Positions 1 through 35,747 of a stretch of 35,872 nucleotides of DNA are shown here, piece after piece. Both the position numbers and the translations under genes were made by a program. Under the pieces are notes generated by a model that saw only the letters and a list, made by a program, of their open reading frames with translations, had not been told where the DNA came from and ran no database searches. Origin of the DNA: Nitrospirota bacterium. Its GTDB lineage: Bacteria > Nitrospirota > Thermodesulfovibrionia > Thermodesulfovibrionales > Dissulfurispiraceae. The number at the start of each line of letters is the position of its first letter. Position 1 is the stretch's first letter. The stretch is from positions 1-35,872 of the forward strand of contig JBFLWF010000023.1 of assembly GCA_040758355.1 (NCBI GenBank), written 5' to 3'.

Positions 1-129
1 AAAGGGGATATAACAGCAGAACAGTTGAGCAAGGCATTGGATGAACTAAAGACGAAGAAGAGATCAAAGACCCTTGACGCATTTCTTGAAGGAAAGATAG
101 ATGAAAGAAAATTCGGGGAGTTGTATTAA
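1..129 (+). CDS. 3' end of an upstream gene (partial; ...KGDITAEQLSKALDELKTKKRSKTLDAFLEGKIDERKFGELY*), function unknown
   Basis: Frame 1 is open from base 1 to TAA at 127-129, ending 8 nt before the next ATG. Confidence 0.6.
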   Translation, partial: KGDITAEQLSKALDELKTKKRSKTLDAFLEGKIDERKFGELY

Positions 130-137
130 AGAAATAA

Positions 138-1766
138 ATGAAGAAACTTTTCTGCTATTTTTCGTGTCTTTTGTTTCTTCTCCTGTTGTGGAGTACTGCC
201 CATGCTAAAACCATCATCCTCGAAGGCAAATTAAACAGCAAAGTCCTCGTAAATCAACAGATCGGTTTTGGTGTAGATAAGCCTTTATCAAGGCTAACAT
301 TCAAATTTGCCCTCCCGTCCGAATTCACTAATAAAGCTGTTTCGCAAAGAATGCAGGAGCTCAATATCAAATTCGATCCCCAACCTGTGAAAGTGGATGA
401 TGCAACCGATGAATTCGGAAATAGATTTAAGGTTGTTACATGGAATAATCTGAGCAAGGATGTGAGGGTCAATATAACCTTTGAGACTAATATTAAGTCA
501 GAGCTTTCTGCAATGGAAAGCAAAGCCCCATTTCCCCTTAATCCAATCCCTAAAAGTGATTTGCTTTATTTAAAGCCTACAGGAATGGTTCAGAGCAATG
601 ACCCTGAGATCATATCACTTTCGAAAAAATTAACAGCAGGCGCAACCACGGAATATGAGGCAGTTACTGCTATACTGAACTATGTTATAGATAATGTTAA
701 GTACACTTATAATCCTCCTCAATACGATGCCCTTTATACATTAAAGACAAGATCTGGCAACTGTCAGAACTTTGCACATTTAAGTATGGCGCTTTTGAGG
801 GCAGCAGGTATACCTGCAAGGATTGTCGGGGGAATAAGTCTTAAACAGTCATGGAAGATCCCTGTTGGCAATAACAACTTCCTTGTCCAGAGCATGGGGC
901 AGGGTGGACATGCATGGATGGAGATATACTTCCCTGACCTCGGATGGCTTTCATATGACCCGCAGCAGTCAAAGCAGTTCACATCATCGAGGCATATAAA
1001 ACAGACACACGGCCTCGATTCAGACGACATAAACGATTCATGGAGGGCATCGCCTTATCTGCCTGATTACAAAGAGGCGGTTGATGCAAAGTTTATAGAC
1101 GATGCCATTTCCCTGCAATTGAAATCGTCAGAAAGATCTCCAAGGTCGTATTTTCTCAGCAATAATCTGATAGTAAAGTCGCCTCCTGTAGAAAAGCCGA
1201 AACTGCCGCCGGTGGAGAGACCAAAATTGCCGCCCGGCAAGGTTATAGAGTTCGGCAATATGGAATTTCCAAGCCTTGTGGATATATACCATGTGGTTGG
1301 AGACAAAGGTATAAAAATACTCGATAAAGAAACCGCCGAGTATGTGACATCTAAGTATGTCTATGCACAGGCGTTTGAGATAGATGAAAGGCTTCAGGTT
1401 AATATCATTTCACTGGCCATGCGAAAATTCGGAGGCGATGGCACTGTCTATATTGACCTCGTATCTGACGACAACGGCAGGCCAAGCCTCAAAGGCGTAA
1501 GATCAGCGCCTATATTCCTCGAAACCATAAAGAAGAGACCCGGCTACTACTGGGTTGATTTCTCCTTTCCGGATAGTATTGTTTTGGAAAAAGGGAGATA
1601 CTGGATTGTGCTGAGACATTCTGGAGAGGTTATAATGAACTGGTTTTATATACCTATGAATCCTTATGGCGACAGCGATGATACGAGGTCTACCCTCAAG
1701 GGTTATAAGTGGGAAGATATACAGAATTATGACTTTGTCTTTAAGATAAAGGCTATAAGACCATAA
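138..1766 (+). CDS. Secreted transglutaminase-like (Cys-His-Asp) domain protein with a Pro-rich linker and a C-terminal beta-rich domain
   Basis: Signal peptide (MKKLF...STAHA). Transglutaminase core motifs GNCQNFAHL, GHAWMEIY and WLSYDP. PPVEKPKL linker. Confidence 0.85.
   Translation: MKKLFCYFSCLLFLLLLWSTAHAKTIILEGKLNSKVLVNQQIGFGVDKPLSRLTFKFALPSEFTNKAVSQRMQELNIKFDPQPVKVDDATDEFGNRFKVVTWNNLSKDVRVNITFETNIKSELSAMESKAPFPLNPIPKSDLLYLKPTGMVQSNDPEIISLSKKLTAGATTEYEAVTAILNYVIDNVKYTYNPPQYDALYTLKTRSGNCQNFAHLSMALLRAAGIPARIVGGISLKQSWKIPVGNNNFLVQSMGQGGHAWMEIYFPDLGWLSYDPQQSKQFTSSRHIKQTHGLDSDDINDSWRASPYLPDYKEAVDAKFIDDAISLQLKSSERSPRSYFLSNNLIVKSPPVEKPKLPPVERPKLPPGKVIEFGNMEFPSLVDIYHVVGDKGIKILDKETAEYVTSKYVYAQAFEIDERLQVNIISLAMRKFGGDGTVYIDLVSDDNGRPSLKGVRSAPIFLETIKKRPGYYWVDFSFPDSIVLEKGRYWIVLRHSGEVIMNWFYIPMNPYGDSDDTRSTLKGYKWEDIQNYDFVFKIKAIRP
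1182..1235 (+). repeat. Imperfect 24-nt coding tandem repeat (PPVEKPKL-PPVERPKL-PP)
   Basis: cctcctgtagaaaagccgaaactg / ccgccggtggagagaccaaaattg / ccgccc; copies differ mostly at synonymous positions. Confidence 0.75.
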
Positions 1767-1789
1767 AAATTCCCCTGAATTTCAATTTT

Positions 1790-1817
1790 TAAAGTTTCTA
1801 TCCAAAAAATCCGATAA
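1790..1817 (+). promoter_or_regulatory. Putative sigma-28 (FliA/SigD) promoter
   Basis: TAAAGTTT (1790-1797), 12 nt, then TCCGATAA (1810-1817), against the consensus TAAAGTTT-N11/12-GCCGATAA. Intergenic and directly upstream of the glycan cluster. Confidence 0.65.
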
Positions 1818-1841
1818 CAAAATAGAGTCAATTTTATGACA

Positions 1842-1861
1842 TGACATTCTTGGGAATGTCA
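1842..1861. promoter_or_regulatory. Perfect 8-bp inverted repeat; candidate operator or 5'-leader hairpin
   Basis: TGACATTC-ttgg-GAATGTCA, about 25 nt downstream of the putative sigma-28 -10 box. Confidence 0.4.
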
Positions 1862-1987
1862 AAAATGCTCCTCAGAAAGTGCGCTCGATAAGAAATATGT
1901 TTTGTATTTCAAATGCTTATGCTTTTATGCTCAATGGTATGCTTATTGCTTACCTTAAGTCTATGTCTAAATGGAGTTTTCGATAAG

Positions 1988-3031
1988 ATGCAGGATTTTT
2001 CTAATAACGGAATAAAGAGCATTCTGATTACAGGTGGGGCAGGGACTGTCGGCAAGGTGCTGCTTAAGCAACTGCTGCTATCCGATGTAGAAGAAATAAG
2101 GGTTTTTGACAATAATGAGACAGAACTCTTTTATCTAACAGATGAGTACCGCGGAGACCAAAGGGCTGTATTTTTCCTTGGCGATATACGGGACAGGGAT
2201 AAGCTGATTAAGATAACAAGGGGCGTGGATGTAATTTTTCACACAGCAGCATTCAAGCATGTGATTCTGTCTGAATTCAATCCCTTCGATGTTGTGCAGA
2301 CAAATATAAACGGAACGCAGAATATCATTGAGGCAGCTTTGCTTAATGATGTGGGGAAGGTCATCTTTACCAGCAGTGACAAGGCTGTGAATCCCACGAA
2401 TGTTATGGGGACCTCTAAATTGATGGCTGAAAAACTTATTACTGCTGCGAATACAATACGCTATGACAAAAAGACTATTTTCTCGAGCACACGGTTTGGA
2501 AATGTATTGGGTTCAAGGGGCTCGGTTGTTCCCATATTCAAAAAGCAGATTAAAAACGGCGGTCCTGTTACGCTGACAGACAGCAGAATGACGAGGTTTG
2601 TAATGACCATCGACGAGGCAGTTGGACTTGTAATTGAGTCAGCGTTAATAGCGAAGGGTGGCGAAGTTCTTGTAACAAAAATGCCTGTAATCAGGATTTC
2701 GGATCTTGCAGAGGTTATGATAGATATTTTAGGACCGATGTATGGGCATAAGCCTGAGAGCATAAAGATTATGGAAATAGGCAAGAAGCCCGGCGAAAAA
2801 CTTTACGAAGAGCTTATGTCTCTCGAAGAGATGGGCAGGGCCATGGAACTGGAGAAGTTGTTCGTGATATTCCCTGCATTCCGTGATTTATACAAAATCG
2901 ATTATACCTATGAAGGCATTGTTTCAAAGACCCTTAAAAATCCGTACATATCCTCTGACGAGCCGTTTATGAGCAGGGAAGATCTAAAATCATATATCCT
3001 CAAACATAGATTAATGGAGGAAGTCTGTTAA
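1988..3031 (+). CDS. CapD/PseB-like NDP-sugar 4,6-dehydratase (polysaccharide biosynthesis protein, extended SDR)
   Basis: GGAGTVG Rossmann motif, AAFKHV, SSDKAVNPTNVMGTSK, RFGNVLGSRGSV, GEKLYEEL. Start moved to the ATG at 1988 (the ORF track starts at 1913). Confidence 0.85.
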   Translation: MQDFSNNGIKSILITGGAGTVGKVLLKQLLLSDVEEIRVFDNNETELFYLTDEYRGDQRAVFFLGDIRDRDKLIKITRGVDVIFHTAAFKHVILSEFNPFDVVQTNINGTQNIIEAALLNDVGKVIFTSSDKAVNPTNVMGTSKLMAEKLITAANTIRYDKKTIFSSTRFGNVLGSRGSVVPIFKKQIKNGGPVTLTDSRMTRFVMTIDEAVGLVIESALIAKGGEVLVTKMPVIRISDLAEVMIDILGPMYGHKPESIKIMEIGKKPGEKLYEELMSLEEMGRAMELEKLFVIFPAFRDLYKIDYTYEGIVSKTLKNPYISSDEPFMSREDLKSYILKHRLMEEVC

Positions 3032-3033
3032 AT

Positions 3034-4197
3034 ATGAAAGGCAAGGTGCTTATACTCGGCGGTGATGGTTATCTCGGATGGCCTACTGCAATGAATCTCT
3101 CAAATCTTGGCTATAGCGTTGCGGTATTGGATAATTATCTCAAGAGATGGATATTCAATAAACTCGGCATAACGCCATTGATTGATTGCCCTAACCTCGA
3201 AGAAAGGGCAAATATATGGAAGGGGCTGACAGGGAATGATATTAAGGTTTATGTCGGTGACATAGGAGAGCAGGATTTTCTTTTTAAGGTAGTAAAGGAA
3301 TTTGAGCCCGATACAATTATCCATTACGGAGAGATACCGTCCGCGCCATATTCCATGCTCAATCACAACACCTCATGGGAAACCATACAGAATAACCTCA
3401 GAGCCACAATGGCCGTTATGTGGGCTATCAGGACAATAAATCCCGATATTCATCTCATAAAGCTTGGCACGATGGGAGAATACGGGACACCGAATATTGA
3501 TATAGAAGAAGGCTTCATGGAAATTGAAAAAGGCGGGAGAAAGGACAGGCTGCCATTCCCGAAGCTTCCCGGCTCATTTTACCATCTGAGCAAGGTACAG
3601 GACAGCGATATGCTTTATCTTGGCGTTAGGATGTGGGGGCTGAGGGTTACCGACTTAAATCAGGGGCCGGTTTATGGAATCGAGACAGACGAAAGCAGAT
3701 TGGATAAAGAAGACCGCCTCATGCCCCATTTCCATTACGATGAATTTTGGGGTACGGTTCTGAATCGATTTATTACACAGGCAGTGGTAGGAATTCCTCT
3801 GACTGTTTACGGCAAGGGCGGTCAGAAGAGGGGATTTTTAAATATTACCGATACCCTTCAATGCGTAAGGCTTGCAGTCCAAAATCCTGCTAATAAAAGC
3901 GAGTTCAGGGTGATGAACCAGTTCACAGAGATATTCAGCGTCAATGAGCTTGCTGAAAAGGTTAAGGCTGCTGCCAAAAACCTCGGCCTCGATGTAACCA
4001 TAAAGAATTATCCGAATCCGCGAAAAGAGGCAGAGGAGCATTATTATAATGCAAAGAATACCAATCTCTTGAGCCTCGGGCTTCAGCCCAATTATCTTAC
4101 AGAAAAGGTTATTACAGAGATGCTGGAGATAGTGATGGAGAATAAAAAGAATATAAGGCAGGACATAATCCTGCCGGGCAGGGCAAAATGGCAATAA
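3034..4197 (+). CDS. sqdB: UDP-sulfoquinovose synthase (SqdB/SQD1/Agl3 family)
   Basis: Family motifs GGDGYLGWPT, PSAPYSM, KLGTMGEYGTPNIDIEEG, PGSFYHLSKV, TDLNQGPVYG, GTVLNRF, NPRKEAEEHYY. Confidence 0.9.
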   Translation: MKGKVLILGGDGYLGWPTAMNLSNLGYSVAVLDNYLKRWIFNKLGITPLIDCPNLEERANIWKGLTGNDIKVYVGDIGEQDFLFKVVKEFEPDTIIHYGEIPSAPYSMLNHNTSWETIQNNLRATMAVMWAIRTINPDIHLIKLGTMGEYGTPNIDIEEGFMEIEKGGRKDRLPFPKLPGSFYHLSKVQDSDMLYLGVRMWGLRVTDLNQGPVYGIETDESRLDKEDRLMPHFHYDEFWGTVLNRFITQAVVGIPLTVYGKGGQKRGFLNITDTLQCVRLAVQNPANKSEFRVMNQFTEIFSVNELAEKVKAAAKNLGLDVTIKNYPNPRKEAEEHYYNAKNTNLLSLGLQPNYLTEKVITEMLEIVMENKKNIRQDIILPGRAKWQ

Positions 4198-4220
4198 ACA
4201 GAGGAGAAGGCAGAAGCGAT

Positions 4221-5372
4221 ATGAAAAGAAAAATATGTATTGTGTTAACGGTACGCGGTAATTATGCGAAAATGAAATCCATAATGAAGGAAATAAAAAA
4301 CCGCTCAAACTGCGAATTACAGCTTGTTGTGGGCGGCGCTGTTATTCTCCATAAATTCGGCAACCCAATAAACATCATCGAAGCCGACGGCTTTGAGATA
4401 AGCGAGATGGTGCACTTCCTCGTCGAGGGCGGAAAGCCCATAACAATGGCGAAATCCACAGGCCTTGCCGTTGTTGAGCTCTCAACAGTCTTTGAAAACC
4501 TCCGTCCTGATATTGTAATGGCAATCGCCGACAGATTTGAAGCCCTTGCCGTTGCAGTGGCGGCAAGCTATATGAATATACCTGTCGCGCATCTCGAAGG
4601 CGGAGAGCTTTCGGGCTCTATAGACGAATCCATAAGGCATGCGATCACAAAACTCTCGCATATCCATTTTGTCGCAACACAAAAGAGCGCAGAGAGGGTA
4701 ATAAAGATGGGAGAGGATCCAGAAAATGTCTATGTCGTAGGCTCCCCGACTATCGACCTCATAAGAGATTTGAACCTTGACCTTGATTTTGATGTCTTTG
4801 AAAAATATGCCGGAGTGGGCGCTTTGGTTCCTGTAACGAAGAATAATTATATCGTCGTATCTCAACATCCTGTCACGACGGAATACGAGTCTGCAAGTAC
4901 TCAGGTGCAGGAAACCCTTCATGCGATCAATGATATAAATATGCCTGCATTATGGCTCTGGCCGAATATGGATGCAGGAACGGACGAGATATCAAAAGGC
5001 ATAAGAATGTTCAGGGAGAAATACCAGCCCAGGCACATACACTTCTTCAAGAACTTTGCCTTCGAGGACTATGCGAAGCTGATAAACAACTCGGCTGTTC
5101 TGGTAGGCAACACGAGCAGCGGCATCAGGGAATCCGCATATCTCGGCGTGCCGGTGGTGAACATAGGCACAAGGCAGAACCACAGGGAAAGGGGAGAAAA
5201 TGTAATAGATGTGAATTACAGCAGGGATGAGATAAGAGAGGCGATAAAAAAACAGATTGCCCGTGGTAAATATCCAGGCAACCATTTATACGGCGACGGA
5301 CGTGCCGGAGAAAAGATTGCGGAAATATTAAGTACGCGCAAGATAAGCGTACAGAAGAGGCTGATGTATTGA
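4221..5372 (+). CDS. neuC: Hydrolysing UDP-N-acetylglucosamine 2-epimerase (NeuC family)
   Basis: ADRFEAL, HLEGGELSGSIDESIRHAITKLSH, QHPVTTE, VGNTSSGIRE, NIGTRQ. ATG at 4221; an alternative ATG at 4188 overlaps sqdB. Confidence 0.85.
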   Translation: MKRKICIVLTVRGNYAKMKSIMKEIKNRSNCELQLVVGGAVILHKFGNPINIIEADGFEISEMVHFLVEGGKPITMAKSTGLAVVELSTVFENLRPDIVMAIADRFEALAVAVAASYMNIPVAHLEGGELSGSIDESIRHAITKLSHIHFVATQKSAERVIKMGEDPENVYVVGSPTIDLIRDLNLDLDFDVFEKYAGVGALVPVTKNNYIVVSQHPVTTEYESASTQVQETLHAINDINMPALWLWPNMDAGTDEISKGIRMFREKYQPRHIHFFKNFAFEDYAKLINNSAVLVGNTSSGIRESAYLGVPVVNIGTRQNHRERGENVIDVNYSRDEIREAIKKQIARGKYPGNHLYGDGRAGEKIAEILSTRKISVQKRLMY

Positions 5373-5378
5373 TGGAAA

Positions 5379-7388
5379 ATGAATAGCACCGCTGTTTATA
5401 AAGATGACCTGGAGATTTTTTTAAAGGAAATCCGTGAATCTCTCCAAAAGGCCGAAGACGAAAACTCCCTCCTTGATGTAGCAGATAAGATTTCAGGCAT
5501 CGATGGTCTCGGTGAATTAATTTGCAGCCATCGCTATGAAGATGATCTCAAAACAATAATAAATTTATTAAGAGAGAAGATTTTCTCAATATTCCTGAAT
5601 AATCTTCAGCTTAATCTGGCATTTTTTAAATTAGATCCATTATTCGATTCAAAAGAAGACCGACTTCCCCCCCATATCGGTATGATTGGCATAAAGAAGA
5701 GATTGTTGTCTGACTATGCTGCCGCAGACAATGCCAATAAGGCAATAATTTTATTCTTTGTCCTGCTCATAGACATCCTGAATAATGAAAAAGAGAAAGG
5801 GTTTGCCGATTTCCTTATACACTCTGCAGATGATTATATCTTTGAAGTGAAAGAGTTTACAGAGATAATCCGTCTCTTGAAAATAATCCCCGAGAAGATA
5901 ATAGATATTTATATAGATAAAATCCTCCCTCCACGCATATTTATGAAAAAACCGATCAATGCCCAAAAGAGCAGCCTTCTGATGTTGAGGCATTTGGGAG
6001 GAGAGTTTAGCTATCACCATAGTTTTGCAAGGCTTTATGAGCCTTTGAGGGCGCTCATTTACGATGCGATAAGCGCAGAGCATATCGAGCTTGTTTTGTA
6101 TATCGCCTTTTATGCCCGCTATTTTTACGGAAATCTGAATGTCAATAATGAAGCATACAAGCTGCTCGATGATGAAATAGAAAGACCTATGAGCGATTTT
6201 TTCCTCGAGTATTGCAAAAAGAATAATATAGCTCCATGCGCAAAACCTCCTGCTAAAAGCGGAAAAATAAGGGTCGGCTATGCGTATCAGCAGCTTGCGT
6301 CATCTTCTCCAGTGTCTGTCTTATTGTCGTTATTGAAAGGCCATGCTCTGAATAAAAATCAGAATATCGAGTTTTATGTGTACAGCTATGATTACAAGGA
6401 GAAGGCCGGGGATGACGATAAAACAGTAAATACAATAAAAAGCATGGGATTTAAATGTGCCAGCGCGGGAAGTCTTGGAAGTTTTGATAACCCCTACTAT
6501 TCGCATATTGAGAAGGCAATGGCATTGAGAGAACAGATAATGGATGATGGAATAGATATATTTGTTACAACAGGAACCCAGATAGGCAATTTTCTTGTTA
6601 CATCAAGGGTTGCTCCGATTCAGATTTATTGGTCGCATATCGACCCCTACTGGAATGTAAATAATCTTGATTGCAAGATAATACATTATGGAAATACGAA
6701 ATCAGTAACTAAAGGGCTATACCGGGGCGTTGAATATTATAAGTTTTCAGCTCCAGTTGCAATGGAGCTTTTAGACCCTCCGGTTTCAAAGCAGGAAGTA
6801 AAAAACCTTAGAAAGAAATTCCAGGCTGATAAAGTCCTCCTTGGATTTCTCGGGAGGCTATCGAAACTATACAATCAGGAGTATCTTTCTGTGGTATCAG
6901 AAATATTAAAACAAAACCCTGAAGCTATCTTTTTAATATGTGGAGCAGGGGATAATGAGCCGATTAAGAAATATTTTGAAAATGCAGGATGCATTGATAG
7001 GGTTTATTTTGAAGGGCATGTCAACGCCCATGTGTACGGTCATATAATCGATATAGGCCTGAATCCATTTCCAAGCCCTATGGGCAATGCTGCCAATGAG
7101 CTTCTGGCAAAGGGCAAGCCTGTGGTTTCCATGATAAGTTCTTTAAGTGAAACCGAAGAGATAAGGAATTTTATATTGAGAGTAAAAAGGGATAAAATTG
7201 GCGGAGAGATATGGGCTGATTCCATTGAAGAATATATCAAGATAGCAGGTGATTTTATAAAGGATAAAGATTACAGGGATGCTGTTGGCAAAAAGGAACA
7301 GGAAATTATAAGACGGATATACGATTGCCAGAAATCGGCAAGTCAGTTGGAGACCTTGTTTATTTCTTTAGCCGAGAACTATGAATGA
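5379..7388 (+). CDS. OGT/SPINDLY-like (GT41-type, GT-B) glycosyltransferase with a helical N-terminus
   Basis: KIRVGY, SRVAPIQIYW, LGFLGRLSKL, DIGLNPFP...ELLAKGKPVVS and ADSIEEYI resemble the OGT-like catalytic half. Confidence 0.6.
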   Translation: MNSTAVYKDDLEIFLKEIRESLQKAEDENSLLDVADKISGIDGLGELICSHRYEDDLKTIINLLREKIFSIFLNNLQLNLAFFKLDPLFDSKEDRLPPHIGMIGIKKRLLSDYAAADNANKAIILFFVLLIDILNNEKEKGFADFLIHSADDYIFEVKEFTEIIRLLKIIPEKIIDIYIDKILPPRIFMKKPINAQKSSLLMLRHLGGEFSYHHSFARLYEPLRALIYDAISAEHIELVLYIAFYARYFYGNLNVNNEAYKLLDDEIERPMSDFFLEYCKKNNIAPCAKPPAKSGKIRVGYAYQQLASSSPVSVLLSLLKGHALNKNQNIEFYVYSYDYKEKAGDDDKTVNTIKSMGFKCASAGSLGSFDNPYYSHIEKAMALREQIMDDGIDIFVTTGTQIGNFLVTSRVAPIQIYWSHIDPYWNVNNLDCKIIHYGNTKSVTKGLYRGVEYYKFSAPVAMELLDPPVSKQEVKNLRKKFQADKVLLGFLGRLSKLYNQEYLSVVSEILKQNPEAIFLICGAGDNEPIKKYFENAGCIDRVYFEGHVNAHVYGHIIDIGLNPFPSPMGNAANELLAKGKPVVSMISSLSETEEIRNFILRVKRDKIGGEIWADSIEEYIKIAGDFIKDKDYRDAVGKKEQEIIRRIYDCQKSASQLETLFISLAENYE

Positions 7389-10717: not shown

Positions 10718-12580
10718 ATGTGTGGAGTTTGCGGATTTACAGGAGAAACTAATATAACTGTTCTTAAAAAGATGGCAGATTCTATTTTCCATCGTGGGCC
10801 TGATGAGGATGGTTTCTATTTTGATGGGAAAATAAATCTCGGTATCAGAAGATTAAGCATAATCGATTTAGAAACCGGACATCAGCCTGTCCACAATGAG
10901 GACAAAAGTATCTGGACGGTTTTTAATGGAGAAATATATAACTTTCAGAAGTTGAGAAAGGAATTAAAAGAAAAGGGTCATAAGTTCTATACAGACCATT
11001 CGGATACCGAAGTTATAGTCCACCTTTATGAAGAATATGGAGATGAGTTTGTTCATAGGTTAAATGGCATGTTTGCCATAGCCTTGTGGGATAAAGAGAA
11101 AGGTAGGCTTTTGCTGATAAGGGATCGCATGGGAGTAAAACCTCTCTTTTATTCAAGCATAAACAATGATCTGATTTTTGGTTCGGAAATTAAGGCCATT
11201 CTTGAACATCCATCTTATCGCCGTGATATAAATTATGAAGCTATTTATCACTATTTTACTTTTAAAAATATCCCAGCGCCTTTAACAGCCTTTAAAGAAA
11301 TTTATTCTCTTTTGCCAGGAGAGATGCTGACCTTTTCAAATGGCGAGCTATCAAAAAACAGGTGGTGGAAGATTAGGTTTGATGAGAATGAGAATTGTGA
11401 TGAGTCGTATGTGAGAGGTAAAATTTTATCACTTCTTGAAGATGCAACAAGAATCAGGATGATAAGCGATGTGCCTTTTGGAGCTTATCTCAGCGGTGGA
11501 GTGGATTCAAGTTCTGTTGTAGCATTGATGACGCGGTTTGCAGATAAACCAGTAAAGACCTTTTCCCTCGGCTATGAGGACGAACTCAAAAATAAAGAAG
11601 CTGATTTGTATTATGCCAGAAAGGTTTCTGAGACATATAAAACAGAACATTACGAATACACAATGTCTTCTAAGGAACTGGTTGATGATATAGACGATGT
11701 AATCGGGGCATTTGACCAACCATTTTCAGGGACAATTTCTACATATTTTCTTACAAAACTAATAAAAAGGCATGTAAAAGTGGCACTATCGGGAGATGGA
11801 GCAGATGAACTTTTTGGAAGTTACCTGTCACATCGCGTGGCTCAGCCGATGTATTATTTCAGCAAGCTTTATGGCAAGGTGAAAAATAATTCTTTGTCCC
11901 GTGAGGAAAAGGGGCTTTTTGCACCGTGTGATATTAAGTTTTTGCAAGATCTTTATGACAAATCCGAAGGCGATGAAGCACTATGGAGGTATAATCTTTA
12001 TCTCTTCACCGATGCCGGAAAAAACAATATTTTGTCCGACAAATTCAAGTCCATGTTGAACAATACAAGCACATTTGTCCTTGTGGAGAGAAACTTTGAG
12101 GAACTTACTGCAAAAACTCCCTTAAACAGAATTCTCGAGATGGAATGGAATACCCAGTTGCCGGATCAGGTGCTTGCCTTTGTAGATTTTCTCTCTATGG
12201 CACATTCCGTAGAGATACGCTCGCCTTTTCTTGATTATAGACTTGTGGAATTCGTGGCAACGATACCCGGTAGCCTTAAGATCAGAAATGGCAATGTTAA
12301 AGATATATTTAAAAGGACTGTTAAGCCATTACTGCCTGAAGGTATAACTGAGAGACAAAAGGAAGGCTTTGTCTTACCTGTTTTTGACTGGATGATGGAG
12401 AAACTTAAGGATTACTGTATGGATATGTTTTCAGAGGAAAGATTGCAAAGGCATGGCTTATTAAATGTAGAATATGTTAAAAACCTGCTTAAGGAATATA
12501 ATAAGGGCAATAGAAGCTGTGCAGGTAAGGTCTGGAACCTAATGATGTTTCAGGTGTGGTGGGGGGGGTATTTTGAATAG
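10718..12580 (+). CDS. asnB: Glutamine-hydrolysing AsnB-family amidotransferase (copy 1)
   Basis: MCG N-terminal nucleophile, HRGPD, FNGEIYN, LSGGVDSS, LSGDGADELF, RSPFLD. Confidence 0.9.
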   Translation: MCGVCGFTGETNITVLKKMADSIFHRGPDEDGFYFDGKINLGIRRLSIIDLETGHQPVHNEDKSIWTVFNGEIYNFQKLRKELKEKGHKFYTDHSDTEVIVHLYEEYGDEFVHRLNGMFAIALWDKEKGRLLLIRDRMGVKPLFYSSINNDLIFGSEIKAILEHPSYRRDINYEAIYHYFTFKNIPAPLTAFKEIYSLLPGEMLTFSNGELSKNRWWKIRFDENENCDESYVRGKILSLLEDATRIRMISDVPFGAYLSGGVDSSSVVALMTRFADKPVKTFSLGYEDELKNKEADLYYARKVSETYKTEHYEYTMSSKELVDDIDDVIGAFDQPFSGTISTYFLTKLIKRHVKVALSGDGADELFGSYLSHRVAQPMYYFSKLYGKVKNNSLSREEKGLFAPCDIKFLQDLYDKSEGDEALWRYNLYLFTDAGKNNILSDKFKSMLNNTSTFVLVERNFEELTAKTPLNRILEMEWNTQLPDQVLAFVDFLSMAHSVEIRSPFLDYRLVEFVATIPGSLKIRNGNVKDIFKRTVKPLLPEGITERQKEGFVLPVFDWMMEKLKDYCMDMFSEERLQRHGLLNVEYVKNLLKEYNKGNRSCAGKVWNLMMFQVWWGGYFE

Positions 12581-14196: not shown

Positions 14197-15114
14197 ATGG
14201 CCTACAAAAGCAATATTGCCAGAGCAGACCGCACATCGGAATCTGATAGATTCCCTGAAGTTATTCTGATTGATAACTTTAATGGATGCAATTTGAGATG
14301 TTCCGCATGTGATCACAGGAATATAAGCAAATACAGACGTATTCAAAAGATGGATTTTGATCTGTATAAAAAGATTATAGATGAGGTGGCGATAAAGAAT
14401 AATAAAGCAAGGGTTTGGGAAATATTTTTTGGCGATCCGTTTTTATGTAATGATATGGATTTAAGGATAAAATATGCAAAAGATAAAGGCTTGCAGGACG
14501 TTGTGCTTAATACAAATGGAGTGCTAATGATACCCGAAAAGGCGAAATCTTTTATTCTTGCCGGGCTTGATTCTATTTATGTAGGGATTGATGCAGCTAC
14601 AGAGGAAACATATAAGAAGATAAGAGTAGGTGGTGATTTTGAAAAAGTTGTGTTGAATGTTTTGCAGTATCGAGATTTGCTGAGAGAATACGGCAAAGAA
14701 ACCCAAAAGTTATTTGTTCAATTTGTATTAAGTGATATTAACGGACATGAGGTGGAAGACTTTAAAAAGTTTTGGATGCATGAGGGTGTACATATCAAAA
14801 TACGGCCTAAAGTGAGTTGGGGGGGGATAGTTGATGCACCTAATCTTCAGCCTAATGAAAAAGTGATGAGAAAACCATGTTATTGGCTTATGCGTTCAAT
14901 TAATATTTGTGCTGATGGCGAGGTTGCATTATGTTCTGTTGATGTCCATTGCAGAGTAAAGTGCGGCAATGTGAAGGAAAGGACAATAGAAGAAGTATGG
15001 AAAGGACAACTTAAATTATACAGAGCTATGCATAAAGAAGAGCGTTTTGGCGAATTGCCGGAGTTATGTAAACAATGCAGGGATTGGCAGTCTGCATATG
15101 CAGATTATTTTTAA
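14197..15114 (+). CDS. Radical SAM protein with a SPASM/twitch domain (copy 1)
   Basis: CNLRCSAC (CxxxCxxC); C-terminal PC...ADGEVALC...GNV...CKQC. Confidence 0.9.
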   Translation: MAYKSNIARADRTSESDRFPEVILIDNFNGCNLRCSACDHRNISKYRRIQKMDFDLYKKIIDEVAIKNNKARVWEIFFGDPFLCNDMDLRIKYAKDKGLQDVVLNTNGVLMIPEKAKSFILAGLDSIYVGIDAATEETYKKIRVGGDFEKVVLNVLQYRDLLREYGKETQKLFVQFVLSDINGHEVEDFKKFWMHEGVHIKIRPKVSWGGIVDAPNLQPNEKVMRKPCYWLMRSINICADGEVALCSVDVHCRVKCGNVKERTIEEVWKGQLKLYRAMHKEERFGELPELCKQCRDWQSAYADYF

Positions 15115-15138
15115 TCTAACCTGAGCGAATGGTAAAGG

Positions 15139-16098
15139 ATGTTTTTTATGCAGCATCTGCCTAAAAGGTTTAGAAAGTTTGCAGGAGCTGAGAGGCTGCC
15201 ATTAATGACAGTTTTATGGGTATCCAATGTCTGCAATGCATCATGCGGACATTGTCCTTTTAATTTAAACAGGCATCTGAGGAAACTGGAAAAAAATCCT
15301 TTTATGAAATGGAACATATTTAAAAAGATTGTGGATGATTTATCTGCAGAAGAAAATCGTCTGATAAGGATAAGCGGGTCTGGAGAACCTTTTATGAATC
15401 CTGATTTATTAAAGTTTATCGTTTATGCAAAAGAAAAGAATGTAAAGGTAGGTGTTATTACTAATGGTTCTCTGCTCGACAGGAAAAAGATTGAAACGAT
15501 GCTGAAGATAGACACGGATATTATCGAGATTTCAGTAGATGCAATGGATAAGGAGACATATTCAAAAATAAGAATCGGTCTGGATTTTGATAAGGTGCAT
15601 GAAAATATTAATGAATTGCTGAGAAAGAGAAAGGAGTTAAAATCGAAGTCGAAGATAATTGTGAGTATAATCAATCAGCCTGATAAGCTGAAAGACCACC
15701 AAAAGGCCGTAGAATACTGGAGCAAGATAGTCGATAAAGTTTTATCCAGAAAATGGATTACATGGAATGTACTCGATACTAAGAATTTTACGAGCCCCTT
15801 TTATAATCCTGAAGAAAGGGTGCCTTGCCCTTGGCCTTTTGAGAGGATACATATTACAAGCGATGGCGATGCGATTTTTTGCGCGGATGATTTGCAAAGG
15901 GAGCATATCATAGGAAATGTTTTGGAATTCTCTATGAAAGAGCTATGGAATCATCCAAAATTTGAGCAATACAGGCAGTATCATCTTGACGGGGACTTTA
16001 GAAAAATCAATATTTGTGAAAATTGCAAGGATTGGCCATATAAGTCATGGAATTATAATTATCATAAAACAGTGAAAGAGTTCGATGAAGGGAAATAG
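15139..16098 (+). CDS. Radical SAM protein with a SPASM/twitch domain (copy 2)
   Basis: CNASCGHC, SGSGEPF, PCPWPF...SDGDAIFC...GNV...CENC. Confidence 0.9.
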   Translation: MFFMQHLPKRFRKFAGAERLPLMTVLWVSNVCNASCGHCPFNLNRHLRKLEKNPFMKWNIFKKIVDDLSAEENRLIRISGSGEPFMNPDLLKFIVYAKEKNVKVGVITNGSLLDRKKIETMLKIDTDIIEISVDAMDKETYSKIRIGLDFDKVHENINELLRKRKELKSKSKIIVSIINQPDKLKDHQKAVEYWSKIVDKVLSRKWITWNVLDTKNFTSPFYNPEERVPCPWPFERIHITSDGDAIFCADDLQREHIIGNVLEFSMKELWNHPKFEQYRQYHLDGDFRKINICENCKDWPYKSWNYNYHKTVKEFDEGK

Positions 16099-16899: not shown

Positions 16900-17934
16900 A
16901 TGAGAAAAACTTTTTTAGTTACAGGCGGGGCCGGTTTTATCGGCTCAAATTTTGCCCATTATATTTACAACAAATATCCTGATTCTAATATACTGGTTTT
17001 GGATTTTCTGACCTATGCCGGAAGCATTGACAACCTGCCCGTCAGACACAATGAAATAAGCAATAGGTTTGAGTTCTGGTACGGCGATGTCAGAGACTCT
17101 TCTTTGGTTGAGTCGATGGTTGCAAAGGCGGATATCGTTGTTCATTTCGCGGCAGAGACCCATGTTACAAGATCGATTTTTGACAACAGAAAGTTTTTCG
17201 AGATAGATGTCCTCGGCACACAGTCGGTAGCAAATGCTGTGCTAAAAAACAACGGCAGGGTAGAGAAATTTATCCACATATCGAGCTCTGAAGTATATGG
17301 GACAGCAGAAAAAGAGCTTATGGATGAAAATCATCCTTTAAATCCTACTACGCCTTATGCTGCCGCGAAGGCAGGAGCTGACAGGCTGGTTTATTCTTAT
17401 TTTAAGACATATGATATACCTGCAGTGATTCTGAGGCCTTTCAATAATTATGGACCAAGACAGCATCTTGAAAAGGTTATACCAAGGTTCGTTACCAGTT
17501 GTATTTTAGGCGAGGATCTCCATATACACGGCGAGGGATTGATGAGCAGGGATTGGATTTATGTGGAAGACACCTGCGAGGCAATAGACAGGATATTAAA
17601 TGCGGACATAAGCTTGGTAAAAGGAGAGTCCTTTAATATCGGCACAGGGCAAAGCATCAGCATAAAAGATCTGGCTTGTATGATTACGGACATCATGAAA
17701 GTGAGCATGGAAAGGATTAAATTTGTAGATGACAGGCCTGGTCAGGTCGACAGGCATACCGCGGATTTATCGAAGATAAAAAATATTTTGGGATGGTCGC
17801 CTAAAACTGGTTTTGAGAGCGGAATAATGAAGACAATAGAATGGTATAAAAACAACAGGCAGTTATGGGAAAAACAGCTCTGGCTAAGGAATGTTCCGAT
17901 AGTATTGAAGGACGGAAGGAGAGTAATGCATTGA
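16900..17934 (+). CDS. dTDP-glucose 4,6-dehydratase-like NDP-sugar dehydratase (RmlB family)
   Basis: GGAGFIG, HFAAETHV, SSSEVYG, PYAAAKA, NNYGPRQHLEKVIP. Confidence 0.85.
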   Translation: MRKTFLVTGGAGFIGSNFAHYIYNKYPDSNILVLDFLTYAGSIDNLPVRHNEISNRFEFWYGDVRDSSLVESMVAKADIVVHFAAETHVTRSIFDNRKFFEIDVLGTQSVANAVLKNNGRVEKFIHISSSEVYGTAEKELMDENHPLNPTTPYAAAKAGADRLVYSYFKTYDIPAVILRPFNNYGPRQHLEKVIPRFVTSCILGEDLHIHGEGLMSRDWIYVEDTCEAIDRILNADISLVKGESFNIGTGQSISIKDLACMITDIMKVSMERIKFVDDRPGQVDRHTADLSKIKNILGWSPKTGFESGIMKTIEWYKNNRQLWEKQLWLRNVPIVLKDGRRVMH

Positions 17935-18868: not shown

Positions 18869-19984
18869 ATGAAAATAGAGTTCTTCAGACATGCCATAAA
18901 CAATGAGGATATTGAAAGGGCTAACAAGGTTTTAAAATCAATTTTTCTTACCAATGCAGATGTAACCAGTGAGTTTGAGAGAAAGTTTGCACAATATCTT
19001 GATACGAAACACTGCATCGCAGTAAGTTCATGCACTGCTGCTTTGCATATGTCTTTAATAGCCCTTGGAATAAACGAAGGAGATGAGATTATAACCACTC
19101 CATTAAGTTTTGTCGCCACTGCGAATGCAATACTTCATGCAGGTGCACGACCTGTTTTCGTTGATGTAGAAAAGGAAACCGGAAATATCGATGTTACAAA
19201 AATTGAAGAGAAGATTACAGGGAAAACAAAGGCAATAATTCCTGTACATTTATACGGAAACATGGCTGATATGGTAAGCATAAGGAAACTGGCAGACAAG
19301 TACAATCTCAAAGTTATTGAAGATGCTGCCCACTGTATTGAAGGAGAACGGGACGGAATTCGCCCTGGAATACTATCTGACACCGCTTGTTTTTCTTTTT
19401 ATGCTACTAAAAATATAACCTCCGGCGAAGGGGGCGCTGTTGTATGTCATGACAAAGAATTGGCCGAAAAATTCTACATGCTCAGACTTCATGGCATAGA
19501 TAAAGATGCGGGTAGCAGATATACAAAAAGATACAGCCACTGGGATATGAAAATGCTGGGATGGAAATATAATATATCGGATATACAATCAGCCCTCCTC
19601 ATTGGTCAGTTAGATAGAATCGAAGAGAATCTTGCAAAGAGAGAGGCAATAGCATCTTTTTACGAAAGAGAATTCGATAGGTTAGGTATAGACTATATAA
19701 AGGTTCCTAAAAATACAAAATCGGCAAGGCATTTGTTTGCCATGTTGGTTGATAATAGGGATGAGGTTTTGGTCAAGCTGCAAAAGGCGGGTATCGGTGT
19801 GGCAGTAAATTACAGGCCCATACATCTCCATACTTATTATAAGAATACATTTGGATACAAAGATGGAGATTTTCCTATTGCAGAATATATCGGAAACAGA
19901 GCAATATCTATCCCGTTATATCCAGGACTTACTGATAAAGAAACCGAGTATATTGTTAACACATTAAAATCTATAGTCAAGTAA
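18869..19984 (+). CDS. DegT/DnrJ/EryC1/StrS PLP-dependent sugar aminotransferase
   Basis: SSCTAALH, PVHLYG, IEDAAH, FSFYATKNITSGEGG. Confidence 0.92.
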   Translation: MKIEFFRHAINNEDIERANKVLKSIFLTNADVTSEFERKFAQYLDTKHCIAVSSCTAALHMSLIALGINEGDEIITTPLSFVATANAILHAGARPVFVDVEKETGNIDVTKIEEKITGKTKAIIPVHLYGNMADMVSIRKLADKYNLKVIEDAAHCIEGERDGIRPGILSDTACFSFYATKNITSGEGGAVVCHDKELAEKFYMLRLHGIDKDAGSRYTKRYSHWDMKMLGWKYNISDIQSALLIGQLDRIEENLAKREAIASFYEREFDRLGIDYIKVPKNTKSARHLFAMLVDNRDEVLVKLQKAGIGVAVNYRPIHLHTYYKNTFGYKDGDFPIAEYIGNRAISIPLYPGLTDKETEYIVNTLKSIVK

Positions 19985-27997: not shown

Positions 27998-28966
27998 ATG
28001 AAAAAAGCCCTTTACTTTGAAATACTGAATTACAAGAAAGAGAATCTCGACCTTTTATACGATAATTTCGAAGTCATAAGGCTGAATAATCCATCAATGA
28101 TAACTCCAGACATCCTGAAGGATGTATCAGTAATATTTGCGCCATTAGGCTATTTCTTCGGAGAGGATATTTTTTCCATGTCTCCAAATCTGAAGGTGGT
28201 TGCAACCAATACAACCGGCGTTCCTCATATTGATGTTGAGCGTGCAGCAGCGAAAGGCATCAAAGTTATCTCATTAAAGGATGAAAAAGAATTTCTCAAT
28301 ACAATTACACCCACCGCAGAATTAACGATGGGATTGATAATCAATATTACAAGAAATGTAATTCCTGCAATGGAATCTGTTTTAAACGGTAAGTGGAGCA
28401 GATGGGAATTTGGAGGGCAGGCAATGCTTTCGAGGATGTCACTTGGCATTGTCGGTCTTGGAAGGCTTGGCAAGATGGTGGCAAGGTATGCAACTGCATT
28501 CGGCATGAAGGTTTTGTATTATGACCATTTTATTACGCATGAACCGCAATGGACATATAAGAGATGTGAAAGTATAGAGGAATTGGTTTCTGATGTTGAT
28601 ATTATTTCAGTGCATATTCCCATGAATGAAGAAAACAGGCATCTTTTTAATAAAAATGTATTCTCTAACTTTAAGCAGGGCTCCTATTTCATAAACACGG
28701 CAAGGGGCGAGGTAGTAGATTCTGAAGCACTTATCGATGCTTTAGAGAAAGGAATCATCAAAGGTGCGGCACTGGATGTGCTTGGCGGCGAATTTGAGCC
28801 TGATTTTCCGAACAGGGTCTTGTCCCATCCTTTGGTGCAGTATGCTCGGACGCATGATAATTTGATTATCACACCCCACATTGCTGGCTCAACAGAAGAT
28901 GCATGGTATCTGACACAGCGTCATGTAATAGAACAGACTATTGAGTATATGAGGAGATTTCAATGA
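27998..28966 (+). CDS. D-isomer-specific 2-hydroxyacid dehydrogenase family protein
   Basis: GIVGLGRLG, FINTARG, AALDV, ITPHIAG. Confidence 0.88.
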   Translation: MKKALYFEILNYKKENLDLLYDNFEVIRLNNPSMITPDILKDVSVIFAPLGYFFGEDIFSMSPNLKVVATNTTGVPHIDVERAAAKGIKVISLKDEKEFLNTITPTAELTMGLIINITRNVIPAMESVLNGKWSRWEFGGQAMLSRMSLGIVGLGRLGKMVARYATAFGMKVLYYDHFITHEPQWTYKRCESIEELVSDVDIISVHIPMNEENRHLFNKNVFSNFKQGSYFINTARGEVVDSEALIDALEKGIIKGAALDVLGGEFEPDFPNRVLSHPLVQYARTHDNLIITPHIAGSTEDAWYLTQRHVIEQTIEYMRRFQ

Positions 28967-29658
28967 AGGTCCTGGGAATAGTTCCGGCAAGGGGTGGATC
29001 AAAGAGGATACCGAATAAGAACCTATATCTCTTGGGAGGGATTCCCCTTATATGCCATTGTTTGGGAACAGCAAAGAAAAGCCCTTCTATTGACAGGCTT
29101 GTTGTATCAACAGAGGATGAGGCCATAGCAGAGGTTGCGAAAAAAGAGGGTGTCGAGGTCATTAAGAGGCCTGTTGAACTGGCGCAGGATAATACTCCGA
29201 CCCTGCCTGTAATAAAGCATGTGATTAATGAACTGGATAAAGAGGGATTTTATGCGGACATTATCCTTACAATCCAGCCTACATATCCTTTTATAACGGT
29301 GGAGAATATAGAAAAAACTATAAAGGCTTTTTCTGAGAATGGAGATTTTGATTCTGTGACAACCGTTACAAGGGCGCCGTTTAAACATCATCCTTACAAT
29401 GCAAGGAAGATAAACGAGGACGGCACAATCTCCTTCATGTTTCCTGAAGAGAAGAAGAAGTGCCCTAACAGTCAGTCAGCGCCTCCAGTCTATTTTTTTG
29501 GAAACCTTTATGCGTCAAAAAGGGCTACGATATTTGAAAAGGACTCGCTTTACGGAGATATATCTTTTCCAGTAGAGATCGATACCATCGAAGGGTTTGA
29601 TATTGACGATATGTTTGATATGGAGATGGCAGAATGGCTGATGACGAGAAAGAGATAG
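28963..29658 (+). CDS. neuA: Acylneuraminate (CMP-nonulosonate) cytidylyltransferase
   Basis: IVPARGGSKRIPNKN, VSTED, QPTYP, DIDD..D. Confidence 0.85.
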   Translation: MKVLGIVPARGGSKRIPNKNLYLLGGIPLICHCLGTAKKSPSIDRLVVSTEDEAIAEVAKKEGVEVIKRPVELAQDNTPTLPVIKHVINELDKEGFYADIILTIQPTYPFITVENIEKTIKAFSENGDFDSVTTVTRAPFKHHPYNARKINEDGTISFMFPEEKKKCPNSQSAPPVYFFGNLYASKRATIFEKDSLYGDISFPVEIDTIEGFDIDDMFDMEMAEWLMTRKR

Positions 29659-30458: not shown

Positions 30459-31487
30459 ATGCGCAAAAAACTGGGCGATAATGTAAGGATAGAAGAGAGG
30501 GTTGTTGGTTTAGGCAACCCTGTTTTTGTTATTGCAGAGGCAGGCGTAAACCACTTCGGAAATATTGAGATTGCAAAACACCTTATCGATATGGCGGTTA
30601 TAGCACGGGCAGATGCGGTGAAATTTCAGATATTCAAAACAGAAAACCTTGTTTCTTCTGTTGCACCGGACTGGATAGAGAGGCTTAAACCAAAAGAACT
30701 GCCGTATGATGCTTTTAAATATCTTAAGGAATATTGTGAGCAAAAGGGCATAATGTTTCTTGCCACTGCCCATGATGATGAGAGCCTTGATTTTTATAAC
30801 TCTCTTAATCCAATTGCATATAAAATCGGCTCAGGAGAGGTATCAAACACCCCATATCTAAGAAAAGTCGCAAAGAAGAAAAAGCCCGTAATCCTCTCAA
30901 CAGGCATGTATGATATGGATGATGTCAGGGATGCTGTTAATATATTTCTTGACGAAGGAAATACCAATCTTATTCTTCTTCATTGCATAACCTGCTATCC
31001 TCCTGTGCCGGAAGATATCAACTTGAAGGTTATCAACGCGCTGCAGAAAGAATTTGGATGTTCTGTTGGATATTCAGACCATACCATAGGCAATGATATG
31101 GTTCTTGCGGCAGTCGCCGTTGGCGCTTCTGTTATCGAAAAGCACATTGCTGTGAGCAAGAATGCACCCGGTTCTCAGGATTGCCCTGTCTCATGCGATG
31201 AAAGAGATCTCATAGAGATGGTAAATAGCATAAGGAAGATAGAAAAAGCGATTGGAACAGGCATCAAGTTCCCTTCCGAAAGAGAGCTTAAAAGCAAAGA
31301 GTGGGCAAGAAAGAGCGTTGTCGCTAAAGTCGATATTAAAAAAGGCGATGTAATAACAGAAGATATGCTGATATTGAAGAGACCGGGAACAGGCATAAGC
31401 CCAAAGGACATCGACAAGGTGATTGGACGCATTGCAAAGAGAAATATTAAAATAGATTCGTTGCTGCAATTTGACGATGTGCAATAG
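30459..31487 (+). CDS. neuB: NeuB-family nonulosonic acid synthase with a C-terminal SAF domain
   Basis: IAEAGVNH, ADAVKFQ, KIGSGE, LSTGM, GYSDHT, IEKH, KRPGTGISP. Confidence 0.9.
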   Translation: MRKKLGDNVRIEERVVGLGNPVFVIAEAGVNHFGNIEIAKHLIDMAVIARADAVKFQIFKTENLVSSVAPDWIERLKPKELPYDAFKYLKEYCEQKGIMFLATAHDDESLDFYNSLNPIAYKIGSGEVSNTPYLRKVAKKKKPVILSTGMYDMDDVRDAVNIFLDEGNTNLILLHCITCYPPVPEDINLKVINALQKEFGCSVGYSDHTIGNDMVLAAVAVGASVIEKHIAVSKNAPGSQDCPVSCDERDLIEMVNSIRKIEKAIGTGIKFPSERELKSKEWARKSVVAKVDIKKGDVITEDMLILKRPGTGISPKDIDKVIGRIAKRNIKIDSLLQFDDVQ

Positions 31488-32038: not shown

Positions 32039-33216
32039 ATGGCTGGTAAAGCTCGCGCTAAAAAGATACTATTCCCTTTAGGGGAAAAGGAACTCTCTTC
32101 TGTTCAGGAAAGGCTGTTGCACATCCCTTTAAGACTCGCAAAAGCGGGCTTCAGTGTTGACATAGTTACCTACAAAAAGGATTTATACGAGAAGGCGGAG
32201 TCTTTTTTTAAGGATGCTGCCAATATAACCCTCAAGCTCATGAAGTCTATGCCTCTCGTATGGTCTCCTCAGCAGAGGGACGATTTTGTCAAGATTTTCA
32301 TCAAGCACACCTTTGATCTTTATATTCCGGGAACAGACATGAAATACTGGAAAACAGCGGCATTTGACGACTTCAGGGGCCATGTATCCAGTCATGCTTT
32401 TTCAGGGCTCGAAGGCAGCTATGACCTCCTGCTGATGCCTGTACCTTCAAGCGATGAACCTCCTTCTACGGATTGCGATGTCTTCTATTCAACGGTTGTT
32501 TTCTTTGCTAAAGAGAATAATATTGCTACGGCCGGGATGCAGATATACCCTATTTCACATACCCCGCTAATCTTTCTGAGGTCATTTGACTATTTTATAG
32601 TAAAAGAGACATTCGAAAAAAAGTATTATGTTAATCACGGCATAGAAGACGACAGAATCTTTATACTTGATGCCCACGAAGAAAACTATTGCCTGTCTAC
32701 GGTAGAGGACACATACAAGAACCTTATGTTCAGCGATCAGATATCGATTGAGAGGGATGAAATAGGCGTCTTGATTGTGAATCATTCGAAATTCAGGCCC
32801 CAGATAAAGGAGATAATAGAGGCATTGTCAGAGTTGAATATAAAGAAGTCTGTTTTTTTCCAGAAGCGTGGATACCATGTCAGGGAGCTTTCAGAAGACC
32901 AGATAGTCGATGAGCTGATAAGGCCGGTTCTTGCAAAGGCCGGAGGAAAACATTATATTGTTCAGGAGGGGGCGCTTGTAAAGGTCCTTATGCCGTGCGA
33001 TGTAATCATAGCCCCTGTGTATATAATTCCTCTCAGTTTTGCCGTCCAGCATGACAAATGCTCAATAGTCTATAACCCATTAAAAAAGGCGATGCAATTT
33101 CAGGACGGCGTCTTATTTTTAAATAATAAAAAGTCGATTATAGATACAGTCATGGCTCACTTTGAGAGAAAACAGAACCTCACTTATATAAGTGATATTG
33201 TTAAGAGGATAACCGG

Positions 33217-33220
<4 letters not shown>
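32039..33220 (+). CDS. Hypothetical protein, probable GT-B-like fold
   Basis: Long ORF coupled to both neighbours; weak GT-B-like alternation (CDVIIA...LSFAV..DK.SIVYN). Confidence 0.5.
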
Positions 33221-35391
<2,171 letters not shown>

Positions 35392-35731: not shown

Positions 35732-35747
35732 CCCCGTTAGAAAAAGA

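Follow-up and report, generated by a model that had tools for sequence, protein, structure and literature searches.

A conserved and mobile gene set that joins an SqdB-family enzyme to nonulosonate synthesis is a candidate pathway to a C9-sulfonated sialic-acid-like sugar

We analysed a 35,872-nucleotide stretch of DNA (the window), which is an entire 35.9 kb contig (JBFLWF010000023.1) of a Nitrospirota genome (G000, assembly GCA_040758355.1) that is 99% complete. The window carries a glycan island in which sqdB, a gene of the SqdB/SQD1 family of sulfo-sugar synthases, accompanies neuC, neuB and neuA, the genes for making a nonulosonate. We found that this gene set is conserved and mobile, and its most likely product is a sialic-acid-like sugar of the cell surface, so far undescribed, with a carbon-bound sulfonate. 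For the island itself, we consider it probable that the genes encode a route to a nonulosonic acid sulfonated at C9, in which uridine diphosphate (UDP)-N-acetylglucosamine (GlcNAc) is turned into its 6-deoxy-6-sulfonate and then into a cytidine monophosphate (CMP)-9-deoxy-9-sulfo-nonulosonate, which here would probably serve flagellin. We infer every substrate, product and acceptor from the gene identities, linkage and residue changes presented below.

A previous reading of the window, made from the sequence alone, had noted the tight packing of a capD-like gene, sqdB and neuC, with neuA and neuB in the same island, and had proposed that SqdB takes part in a nonulosonate pathway to a C-sulfonated sugar. 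Genomic and structural evidence now supports this proposal for a predicted sugar, and the layout was confirmed. The first three genes lie on the forward strand with intergenic gaps of 2 and 23 bases, and neuA and neuB, which belong to this co-directional run as well, follow on that strand 24–26 kb downstream (Table 1). The genome has one copy each of sqdB, hydrolysing neuC, neuB and neuA, all inside the island. SqdB, NeuC, NeuB and NeuA are also the smallest set of genes shared among the loci that we compared.

NeuB has a TIM barrel and an SAF domain, conserves E27, K55, Q57, H208, H229 and D241, and its model superposes on Neisseria NeuB (PDB 1XUU) with a template-modelling score (TM) of 0.86. 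It scored below both equivalog cut-offs (361.5 against 399.65 for TIGR03569 and 249.3 against 340.25 for TIGR03586). The segment after EKH, EKHIAVSKNAPGSQDC, had been singled out as divergent on first reading and is present. The protein belongs to a distinct clade with new Arg, Lys and His residues. This clade comprised 47 of 96 rows with a FastTree support of 100, and had a support of 99 in a quick IQ-TREE of 42 rows chosen from 104. R75 was found in 45 of the 47 clade rows compared with 6 of 49 outside, and H105 in all 47 compared with none of 49; K/R79 and Q240 were present in 46 and 43 clade rows, respectively. I82, C86 and F112 of the Neisseria enzyme are thereby replaced by Arg, Lys and His, and the β2–α2 loop is 9 residues shorter than that of 1XUU. 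In the human enzyme, the corresponding loop selects the 6-phosphate. Seven phage NeuBs added later kept H105; their positions 75 and 79 were unaligned.

The co-occurrence of sqdB with these neu clades across genomes had been suggested as a check, and we found it to be conserved in unrelated bacteria and in phages. Among loci collected independently of sqdB, an sqdB gene lay within 9 kb of 8 of 11 clade NeuBs and of none of 18 other NeuBs, a count that leaves out loci fetched through sqdB, rows whose flank was shorter than 3 kb and any second NeuB of a clade locus. Three clade NeuBs were misses: for L082, sqdB is on a different contig of the genome, L205 breaks off 1.7 kb ahead of neuC, and L206 is a true exception. 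In our phylum sample of 301 Nitrospirota genomes, all seven genomes with a clade NeuB carried sqdB (four belong to one genus), compared with 12 of the 294 others. A scan of metagenomes with the NeuC motif returned at least 118 stretches; 80 had full flanks, comprising 68 with a true NeuC and 12 chance matches. sqdB was present at 32 of the 68 true RGNY-NeuC loci, many of which are on short contigs, and at none of the 12 chance loci; with 3 kb on each side, the figure was 11 of 12. These loci ranged in GC content from 0.27 to 0.70 and varied in gene order (capD-sqdB-neuB-neuC-dehydrogenase-neuA, neuB-sqdB-neuC-neuA and neuB-neuC-neuA-sqdB). The linkage of sqdB exceeds chance, and Fisher values overstate it, as kin are non-independent.

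Cassette SqdBs, or their 90% clusters, were assigned to Desulfobulbaceae, Nitrospinaceae, Nitrospiraceae and Ca. Pseudothioglobus (9 of 10 matched exactly; four clusters gave a taxon). In Desulfatibacillum aliphaticivorans, the accession numbers of sqdB and a clade neuB differ by five. A genome scan with a single SqdB query added three close loci, which may repeat genomes of the phylum sample and were not counted separately. A NeuC search of plasmid and phage records gave one sister-type Rhizobium locus without sqdB and one distant match, and no full cassette.

Our SqdB had been described as a clear member of its family. This holds for the fold: the model superposes on SQD1 (PDB 1QRR) with a TM of 0.96, a root-mean-square deviation of 1.2 and 50% identity, and it retains the T-M-G, S-x-Y-H-x-x-K and QG motifs, with equivalents of T145, S180, Y182, H183, K186 and Q208. 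It does not hold in full, as the protein scored 444.4 bits against NCBIfam NF041015, below the cut-off of 575, and has Pro at the position of Arg101 in SQD1 and Agl3 (EIPSAPYS for EQRSAPYS). The R101A variant of Agl3 is inactive (PMC4388408), so the loss of this Arg, essential in Agl3, weighs against sulfonation by our enzyme. In an ungapped motif alignment, the same position matches Gly102 of WbpP, one of the signature residues that bear on the space available for the N-acetyl group (PMC12820599), and the WbpP-like protein of locus L081 has Pro at the equivalent of Gly102. The Arg101-to-Pro change may thus admit UDP-GlcNAc. In a tree of 108 SqdB sequences, Arg-type proteins formed a single branch, and Pro was the widespread state. 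SQD1, Agl3 and SqdB of S. meliloti are Arg-type. At locus L312, a Pro-type sqdB lies directly behind a 3′-phosphoadenosine-5′-phosphosulfate (PAPS) reductase gene, which suggests that Pro-type SqdB still uses sulfite.

It is conceivable, although we regard it as doubtful, that Pro-type SqdB adds no sulfite and acts as a UDP-GlcNAc 5,6-dehydratase or Pal-like partner that supplies NeuC and NeuB with a 5,6-ene or 6-deoxy sugar. The nonulosonate formed would then be 9-deoxy, possibly by way of an 8-oxo form that is afterwards reduced. The lost Arg101 and the dehydrogenase gene often found in the cassette would fit such a role, as would the findings that Agl3 makes the 5,6-ene without sulfite and that Pen feeds the pseudaminic acid pathway (PMC8987622). 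However, the other active-site motifs of SQD1 and its fold are kept, the PAPS reductase neighbour points to sulfite, and a neutral 6-deoxy substrate gives no need for extra Arg, Lys and His residues in NeuB.

The gene in front of sqdB encodes what had been called a CapD-like dehydratase. The family assignment stood, and we could refine it: the best solved relative is PDB 6BWC (300 bits; next best 233), which is Pen, a 5,6-dehydratase of UDP-GlcNAc (PMC8987622). The [ST]DK..YxxxK motif was not matched, with Met in place of the catalytic Tyr as in PglF/WbpM, and we therefore call the protein Pen-like rather than Pen. The 5,6-ene formed by Agl3 without sulfite has its N-acetyl counterpart in the product of Pen. 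Genes of the Pen-like clade were found in 11 of the 301 Nitrospirota genomes, all of which have sqdB, directly adjacent in 9. The gene is optional in the cassette, being present in 7 of the 12 well-flanked ones.

Pen-sqdB modules also occur without clade neu genes, in six Nitrospirota genomes (G021, G157, G178, G184, G244 and G298). They are what a two-sugar arrangement would produce, in which the Pen-like enzyme and SqdB make a sulfo-N-acetylhexosamine (HexNAc) or sulfoquinovose, and the neu genes make an unsulfonated nonulosonate for the same glycan. That most Pro-type sqdBs have no neu neighbours and that the island has several glycosyltransferases would also agree with two sugars. We nevertheless think this arrangement unlikely, as it leaves unexplained why a NeuB clade with new basic residues almost always goes with an sqdB, why the sqdB genes were drawn from different branches and why sqdB sits between neuB and neuC in four-gene phage cassettes.

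SqdB relatives were encoded by 246 viral stretches, and the following figures refer to the best 80 of these, with linkage counts inflated by near-duplicates. An adjacent NeuB was found for 9 of 56 Pro-type sqdBs, 1 of 23 Arg-type sqdBs and 1 motif-truncated sqdB. All seven new full-length viral NeuBs beside a Pro-type or truncated sqdB fell into the clade, whereas the one beside an Arg-type sqdB fell outside; those of L293 and L301 were too short for placement. In the tree of SqdBs, the linked ones came from several separate Pro-type branches and none from the Arg branch. One NeuB clade with sqdBs of several branches argues for a link through the product and not for a single hitch-hiking block. 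Phage L099 has a bare neuB-sqdB-neuC-neuA cassette with nothing further in the set, and phage contig L128 has sqdB-neuB-neuC; both also carry terminase- and portal-like genes.

Two phage groups could be told apart by context. In one (L099 at 92-6022, L128, L096/L162 and L165), the neu(-sqdB) cassette lies directly before terminase- and portal-like genes. In the other (L279, L280, L283, L291, L292, L301 and L357), the order is neuA-sqdB-neuB, mostly before a large reductase-like gene; neuC and the dehydrogenase gene are also present in L283, L291 and L301, and by length the NeuB lacks the SAF domain. Most of the viral SqdB relatives have no neu genes, and several are beside dCMP deaminase or methyltransferase genes. 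All five matches of an HFG DNA pattern in viral contigs were due to chance, and a single phage NeuB query retrieved itself only.

NeuC passed the TIGR03568 cut-off (Table 1) and retains equivalents of R19, D112, R113, E134, D143, R147, H220 and S302 of GNE, residues named in PMC4793188, which include R113 and S302 of hydrolysing enzymes. Its assignment as a hydrolysing enzyme was thus upheld. NeuC-type enzymes remove UDP through 2-acetamidoglucal (PMC4793188). The divergent N-terminal motif that had been pointed out, TVRGNYAK, is indeed present, but its loss of Asp is common to the RANY and RPSY sister groups, which lack sqdB, and the NeuB clade therefore serves better as a marker. NeuC was matched in 39 Nitrospirota genomes and is of the divergent type in 14 of them; sqdB was present in all seven with RG[NA]Y (four from one genus) and in none of the seven with RANY or RPSY. 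We rejected the NeuC motif as a marker: the RGNY rows are not one clade, and NeuC of G219 groups with the RPSY type. A PVT[TS]RGNYGKFK subgroup of NeuC is paired with a non-clade NeuB.

The window also holds a PseC-like aminotransferase and a GNAT gene, which together with the CapD-like dehydratase and the neu genes could suggest ordinary legionaminic or pseudaminic acid with sqdB as a bystander. We consider this improbable, because no C4 aminotransferase is conserved: DegT was present in 2 of the 12 well-flanked cassettes, and for the aminotransferase of the window neither G013 nor G090 has a close orthologue. Moreover, typical loci with NHNG-NeuB and TRAEY-NeuC beside degT formed separate clades, and our NeuB fell under the NeuB and PseI cut-offs. 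The D-2-hydroxyacid dehydrogenase gene, in contrast to a required partner, is a frequent but optional companion of neuA, occurring in 7 of the 12 well-flanked cassettes and in cassettes without sqdB. In G013 (C1:2331500-2333200, L263), the dehydrogenase-neuA pair has been relocated outside the island and is kept at 86-87% identity.

We propose the following order of reactions. Because SqdB modifies C6 of a UDP-sugar, whereas NeuC takes UDP away, SqdB would come first and act on a HexNAc. The Arg101-to-Pro change, the Pen-like partner and the new basic residues of NeuB jointly favour HexNAc as the substrate and an anionic group at C6. UDP-GlcNAc would be dehydrated at C5–C6, either by Pro-type SqdB alone or, in cassettes that have it, by the Pen-like enzyme, and SqdB would add sulfite at C6 to give UDP-6-deoxy-6-sulfo-GlcNAc. 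Judging by the chemistry of its family, NeuC would release UDP and invert C2 of this predicted substrate, yielding 6-deoxy-6-sulfo-N-acetylmannosamine. NeuB chemistry turns C6 of the hexose into C9. With phosphoenolpyruvate, the clade NeuB would therefore form 9-deoxy-9-sulfo-N-acetylneuraminic acid, or an N-acyl variant or epimer. NeuA would make the CMP sugar, and a glycosyltransferase of the island would attach it, probably to flagellin. In G013, the island terminates approximately 1.5 kb ahead of flagellin, where the orthologue of the fused glycosyltransferase lies, and in L003 the island comes after flgK-flgL-like genes. In the present genome, fliC is on another contig, 338 bases from its end, and the contig of the window itself ends in a repeat.

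Sulfite would come from the adenosine-5′-phosphosulfate (APS) reductase of the host. The source organism is a sulfur-respiring bacterium; aprA and dsrA scored above their cut-offs, and the genome therefore makes sulfite. Close homologues are named as Dissulfurispira thermophila and as Desulfatibacillum aliphaticivorans, both of them cultured species. A role of SqdB in making UDP-sulfoquinovose for the sulfolipid sulfoquinovosyl diacylglycerol, which its family name and fold would allow, seems to us highly improbable. SQD1, Agl3 and S. meliloti SqdB are Arg-type, and this sqdB sits in a surface-glycan island. The genome has no member of GT8 (PF01501), with SqdX/SQD2 (GT4) not searched and several GT4-like genes present, and no match to the transferase gene behind sqdB in S. 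meliloti, known as SqdD. A sulfolipid route elsewhere in the genome had been named as an outcome that would speak against the proposal; as regards the SqdD or GT8 partner, none was found.

We lean, on balance, towards extending the proposal beyond this island. The four-gene cassette, widespread and phage-borne, would make nonulosonic acids with a C–S bond at C9, the NeuB clade would be fitted to an anionic C6, the Pen-like enzyme would pass UDP-GlcNAc-5,6-ene to SqdB in part of the clade, and the larger Pro-type SqdB branch would consist of UDP-GlcNAc-sulfonating and not sulfolipid enzymes. Several observations weigh against a sulfonated nonulosonate. sqdB and neuB are 26 kb apart in the window, and no sulfite-making gene was found inside neu cassettes in the fetched loci, of whose 119 listed neighbours 46 were Pfam-scanned. 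R75, K79 and H105 of NeuB, which may face the C6 end of the sugar and bind the sulfonate, were placed there by alignment only. Because Pro is widespread in the SqdB family, it is by itself no mark of a neu-linked pathway, and we found no characterised Pro-type SqdB in the literature surveyed. Most Pro-type viral sqdB loci are without neu genes, and Pro-type sqdBs were not significantly more often beside neuB than Arg-type sqdBs in viruses (8/53 against 1/23, p = 0.26). L206 and probably L169 combine a Pen-like gene with a clade NeuB and NeuC and have no sqdB in reach; L140 and L211, each with one short flank, likewise lack sqdB. Conversely, the NeuB near sqdB in G178 is outside the clade, and at L324 the sqdB beside neuA and neuB is Arg-type.

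The proposed pathway combines parts of known systems. Our SqdB resembles SQD1, bacterial SqdB and Agl3 of Sulfolobus acidocaldarius in fold, identity and active-site equivalents, and differs from them in Pro for Arg101, in its score below the NCBIfam cut-off and in its linkage, which is with neu genes and a Pen-like enzyme instead of sulfolipid or N-glycan transferases. As in the Pen/Pal route to CMP-pseudaminic acid of Bacillus thuringiensis (PMC8987622), a Pen-like dehydratase heads a nonulosonate pathway. Unlike that route, Met replaces the catalytic Tyr, an SqdB homologue adjoins, a hydrolysing 2-epimerase comes next, there is no conserved aminotransferase, and a search of the window for a Pal-like gene found none. 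NeuC, NeuB and NeuA belong to the same three families as Neisseria SiaA/C/B and LegG/I/F, with catalytic residues kept, and are set apart by their own NeuB clade with its shorter loop and by the added C6-modifying enzyme. A natural 2-amino-6-deoxy-6-sulfo hexose is known, namely 6-sulfo-QuiN in the S-layer N-glycan of Haloarcula hispanica (PMC9943897); unlike the sugar proposed here, it stays a hexose residue and is not extended to nine carbons. The haloarchaeal plasmid sqdB in our set (L258), from a genus other than Haloarcula, is Pro-type. The sialic acids Neu5Ac9S and Neu5Gc9S likewise have a second negative charge at C9 (PMC13634767), but these are O-sulfate esters and are 16 Da heavier than the predicted C-sulfonate.

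We found no description of a C9-sulfonated nonulosonate or its pathway in the literature searched, with most subscription journals and all supplements outside its scope. An earlier report may exist, for example as an unassigned mass in a nonulosonate survey. If our proposal is right, the product would be a chemically new sialic-acid-like sugar, with two negative charges and a C–S bond instead of a sulfate ester. Aquatic and subsurface bacteria of several phyla would display it on their surfaces, and it would also occur in phages that may reshape the glycans of the host or of the virion. Many of the genes now labelled sulfolipid synthases would then do other work, and an organosulfonate pool would have gone uncounted. 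The exact masses can be sought in existing nonulosonate surveys, and the four-enzyme route could be rebuilt in vitro.

Table 1. Positions and assignments of the island's genes within the window
Feature	Position	Strand	Evidence or remark
Pen-like UDP-GlcNAc dehydratase ('CapD')	1988..3031	+	Best PDB match 6BWC; motif SSDK..NVMG
SqdB/SQD1-family sulfo-sugar synthase, Pro-type	3034..4197	+	Fold and motifs; EIPSAPYS compared with EQRSAPYS
Hydrolysing UDP-HexNAc 2-epimerase NeuC, TxRGNY type	4221..5372	+	TIGR03568 410.8 bits, cut-off 235.9
GT-B glycosyltransferase, candidate transferase	5379..7388	+	Pfam GT1 domain; atlas leads include HMW1C/GT41-like clusters
dTDP-glucose 4,6-dehydratase-like protein, accessory, not Pal-like	16900..17934	+	
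DegT/PseC-like aminotransferase, accessory, outside the core cassette	18869..19984	+	
D-2-hydroxyacid dehydrogenase-like protein, frequent but optional neuA companion	27998..28966	+	Pfam
CMP-nonulosonate synthetase NeuA	28963..29658	+	PF02348; single genomic copy
Nonulosonate synthase NeuB, HFG / His105 / QD[WC] clade	30459..31487	+	PF03102 plus SAF
Protein without Pfam or NCBIfam match, kept beside neuB in close kin	32039..33220	+	Orthologues in G013, G090 and G114
Fused protein with a GT-B-like N-terminal half and a GT2 domain, candidate nonulosonate transferase	33217..35391	+	

The island has two candidate transferases. The GT-B gene follows neuC in all close kin compared, and the fused glycosyltransferase gene is the last large gene ahead of the contig end. 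Two near-identical in-frame segments of 28 residues within the latter (approximately 34906-34989 and 35206-35289) could be copies of a short repeat element that was inserted, to judge by their appearance; the orthologue in G013 lacks 43 residues of this length. The final 125 bases of the window (35746-35872) were found again at the ends of three other contigs, and the assembly is broken at the contig end by a repeat. Between neuA and neuB (29719-30307), two small overlapping open reading frames of 106 and 91 amino acids resemble, by eye only, a toxin–antitoxin-like insertion.

Gene content in the middle of the island differs among close kin. Here it includes two asparagine-synthase-like amidotransferases (10718-12580 and 25058-26905) and two radical SAM/SPASM proteins (14197-16098), and the island also has many methyltransferases. 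Cassettes at L035, L145, L148, L170, L178 and L194 are accompanied by genes resembling amidotransferase sets, among which the L145 protein had no Pfam match. By eye, we take these sets to be WbuX/HisH/HisF-like; they may add an amidino group. Upstream of the island, positions 138-1766 encode a secreted transglutaminase-like protein.

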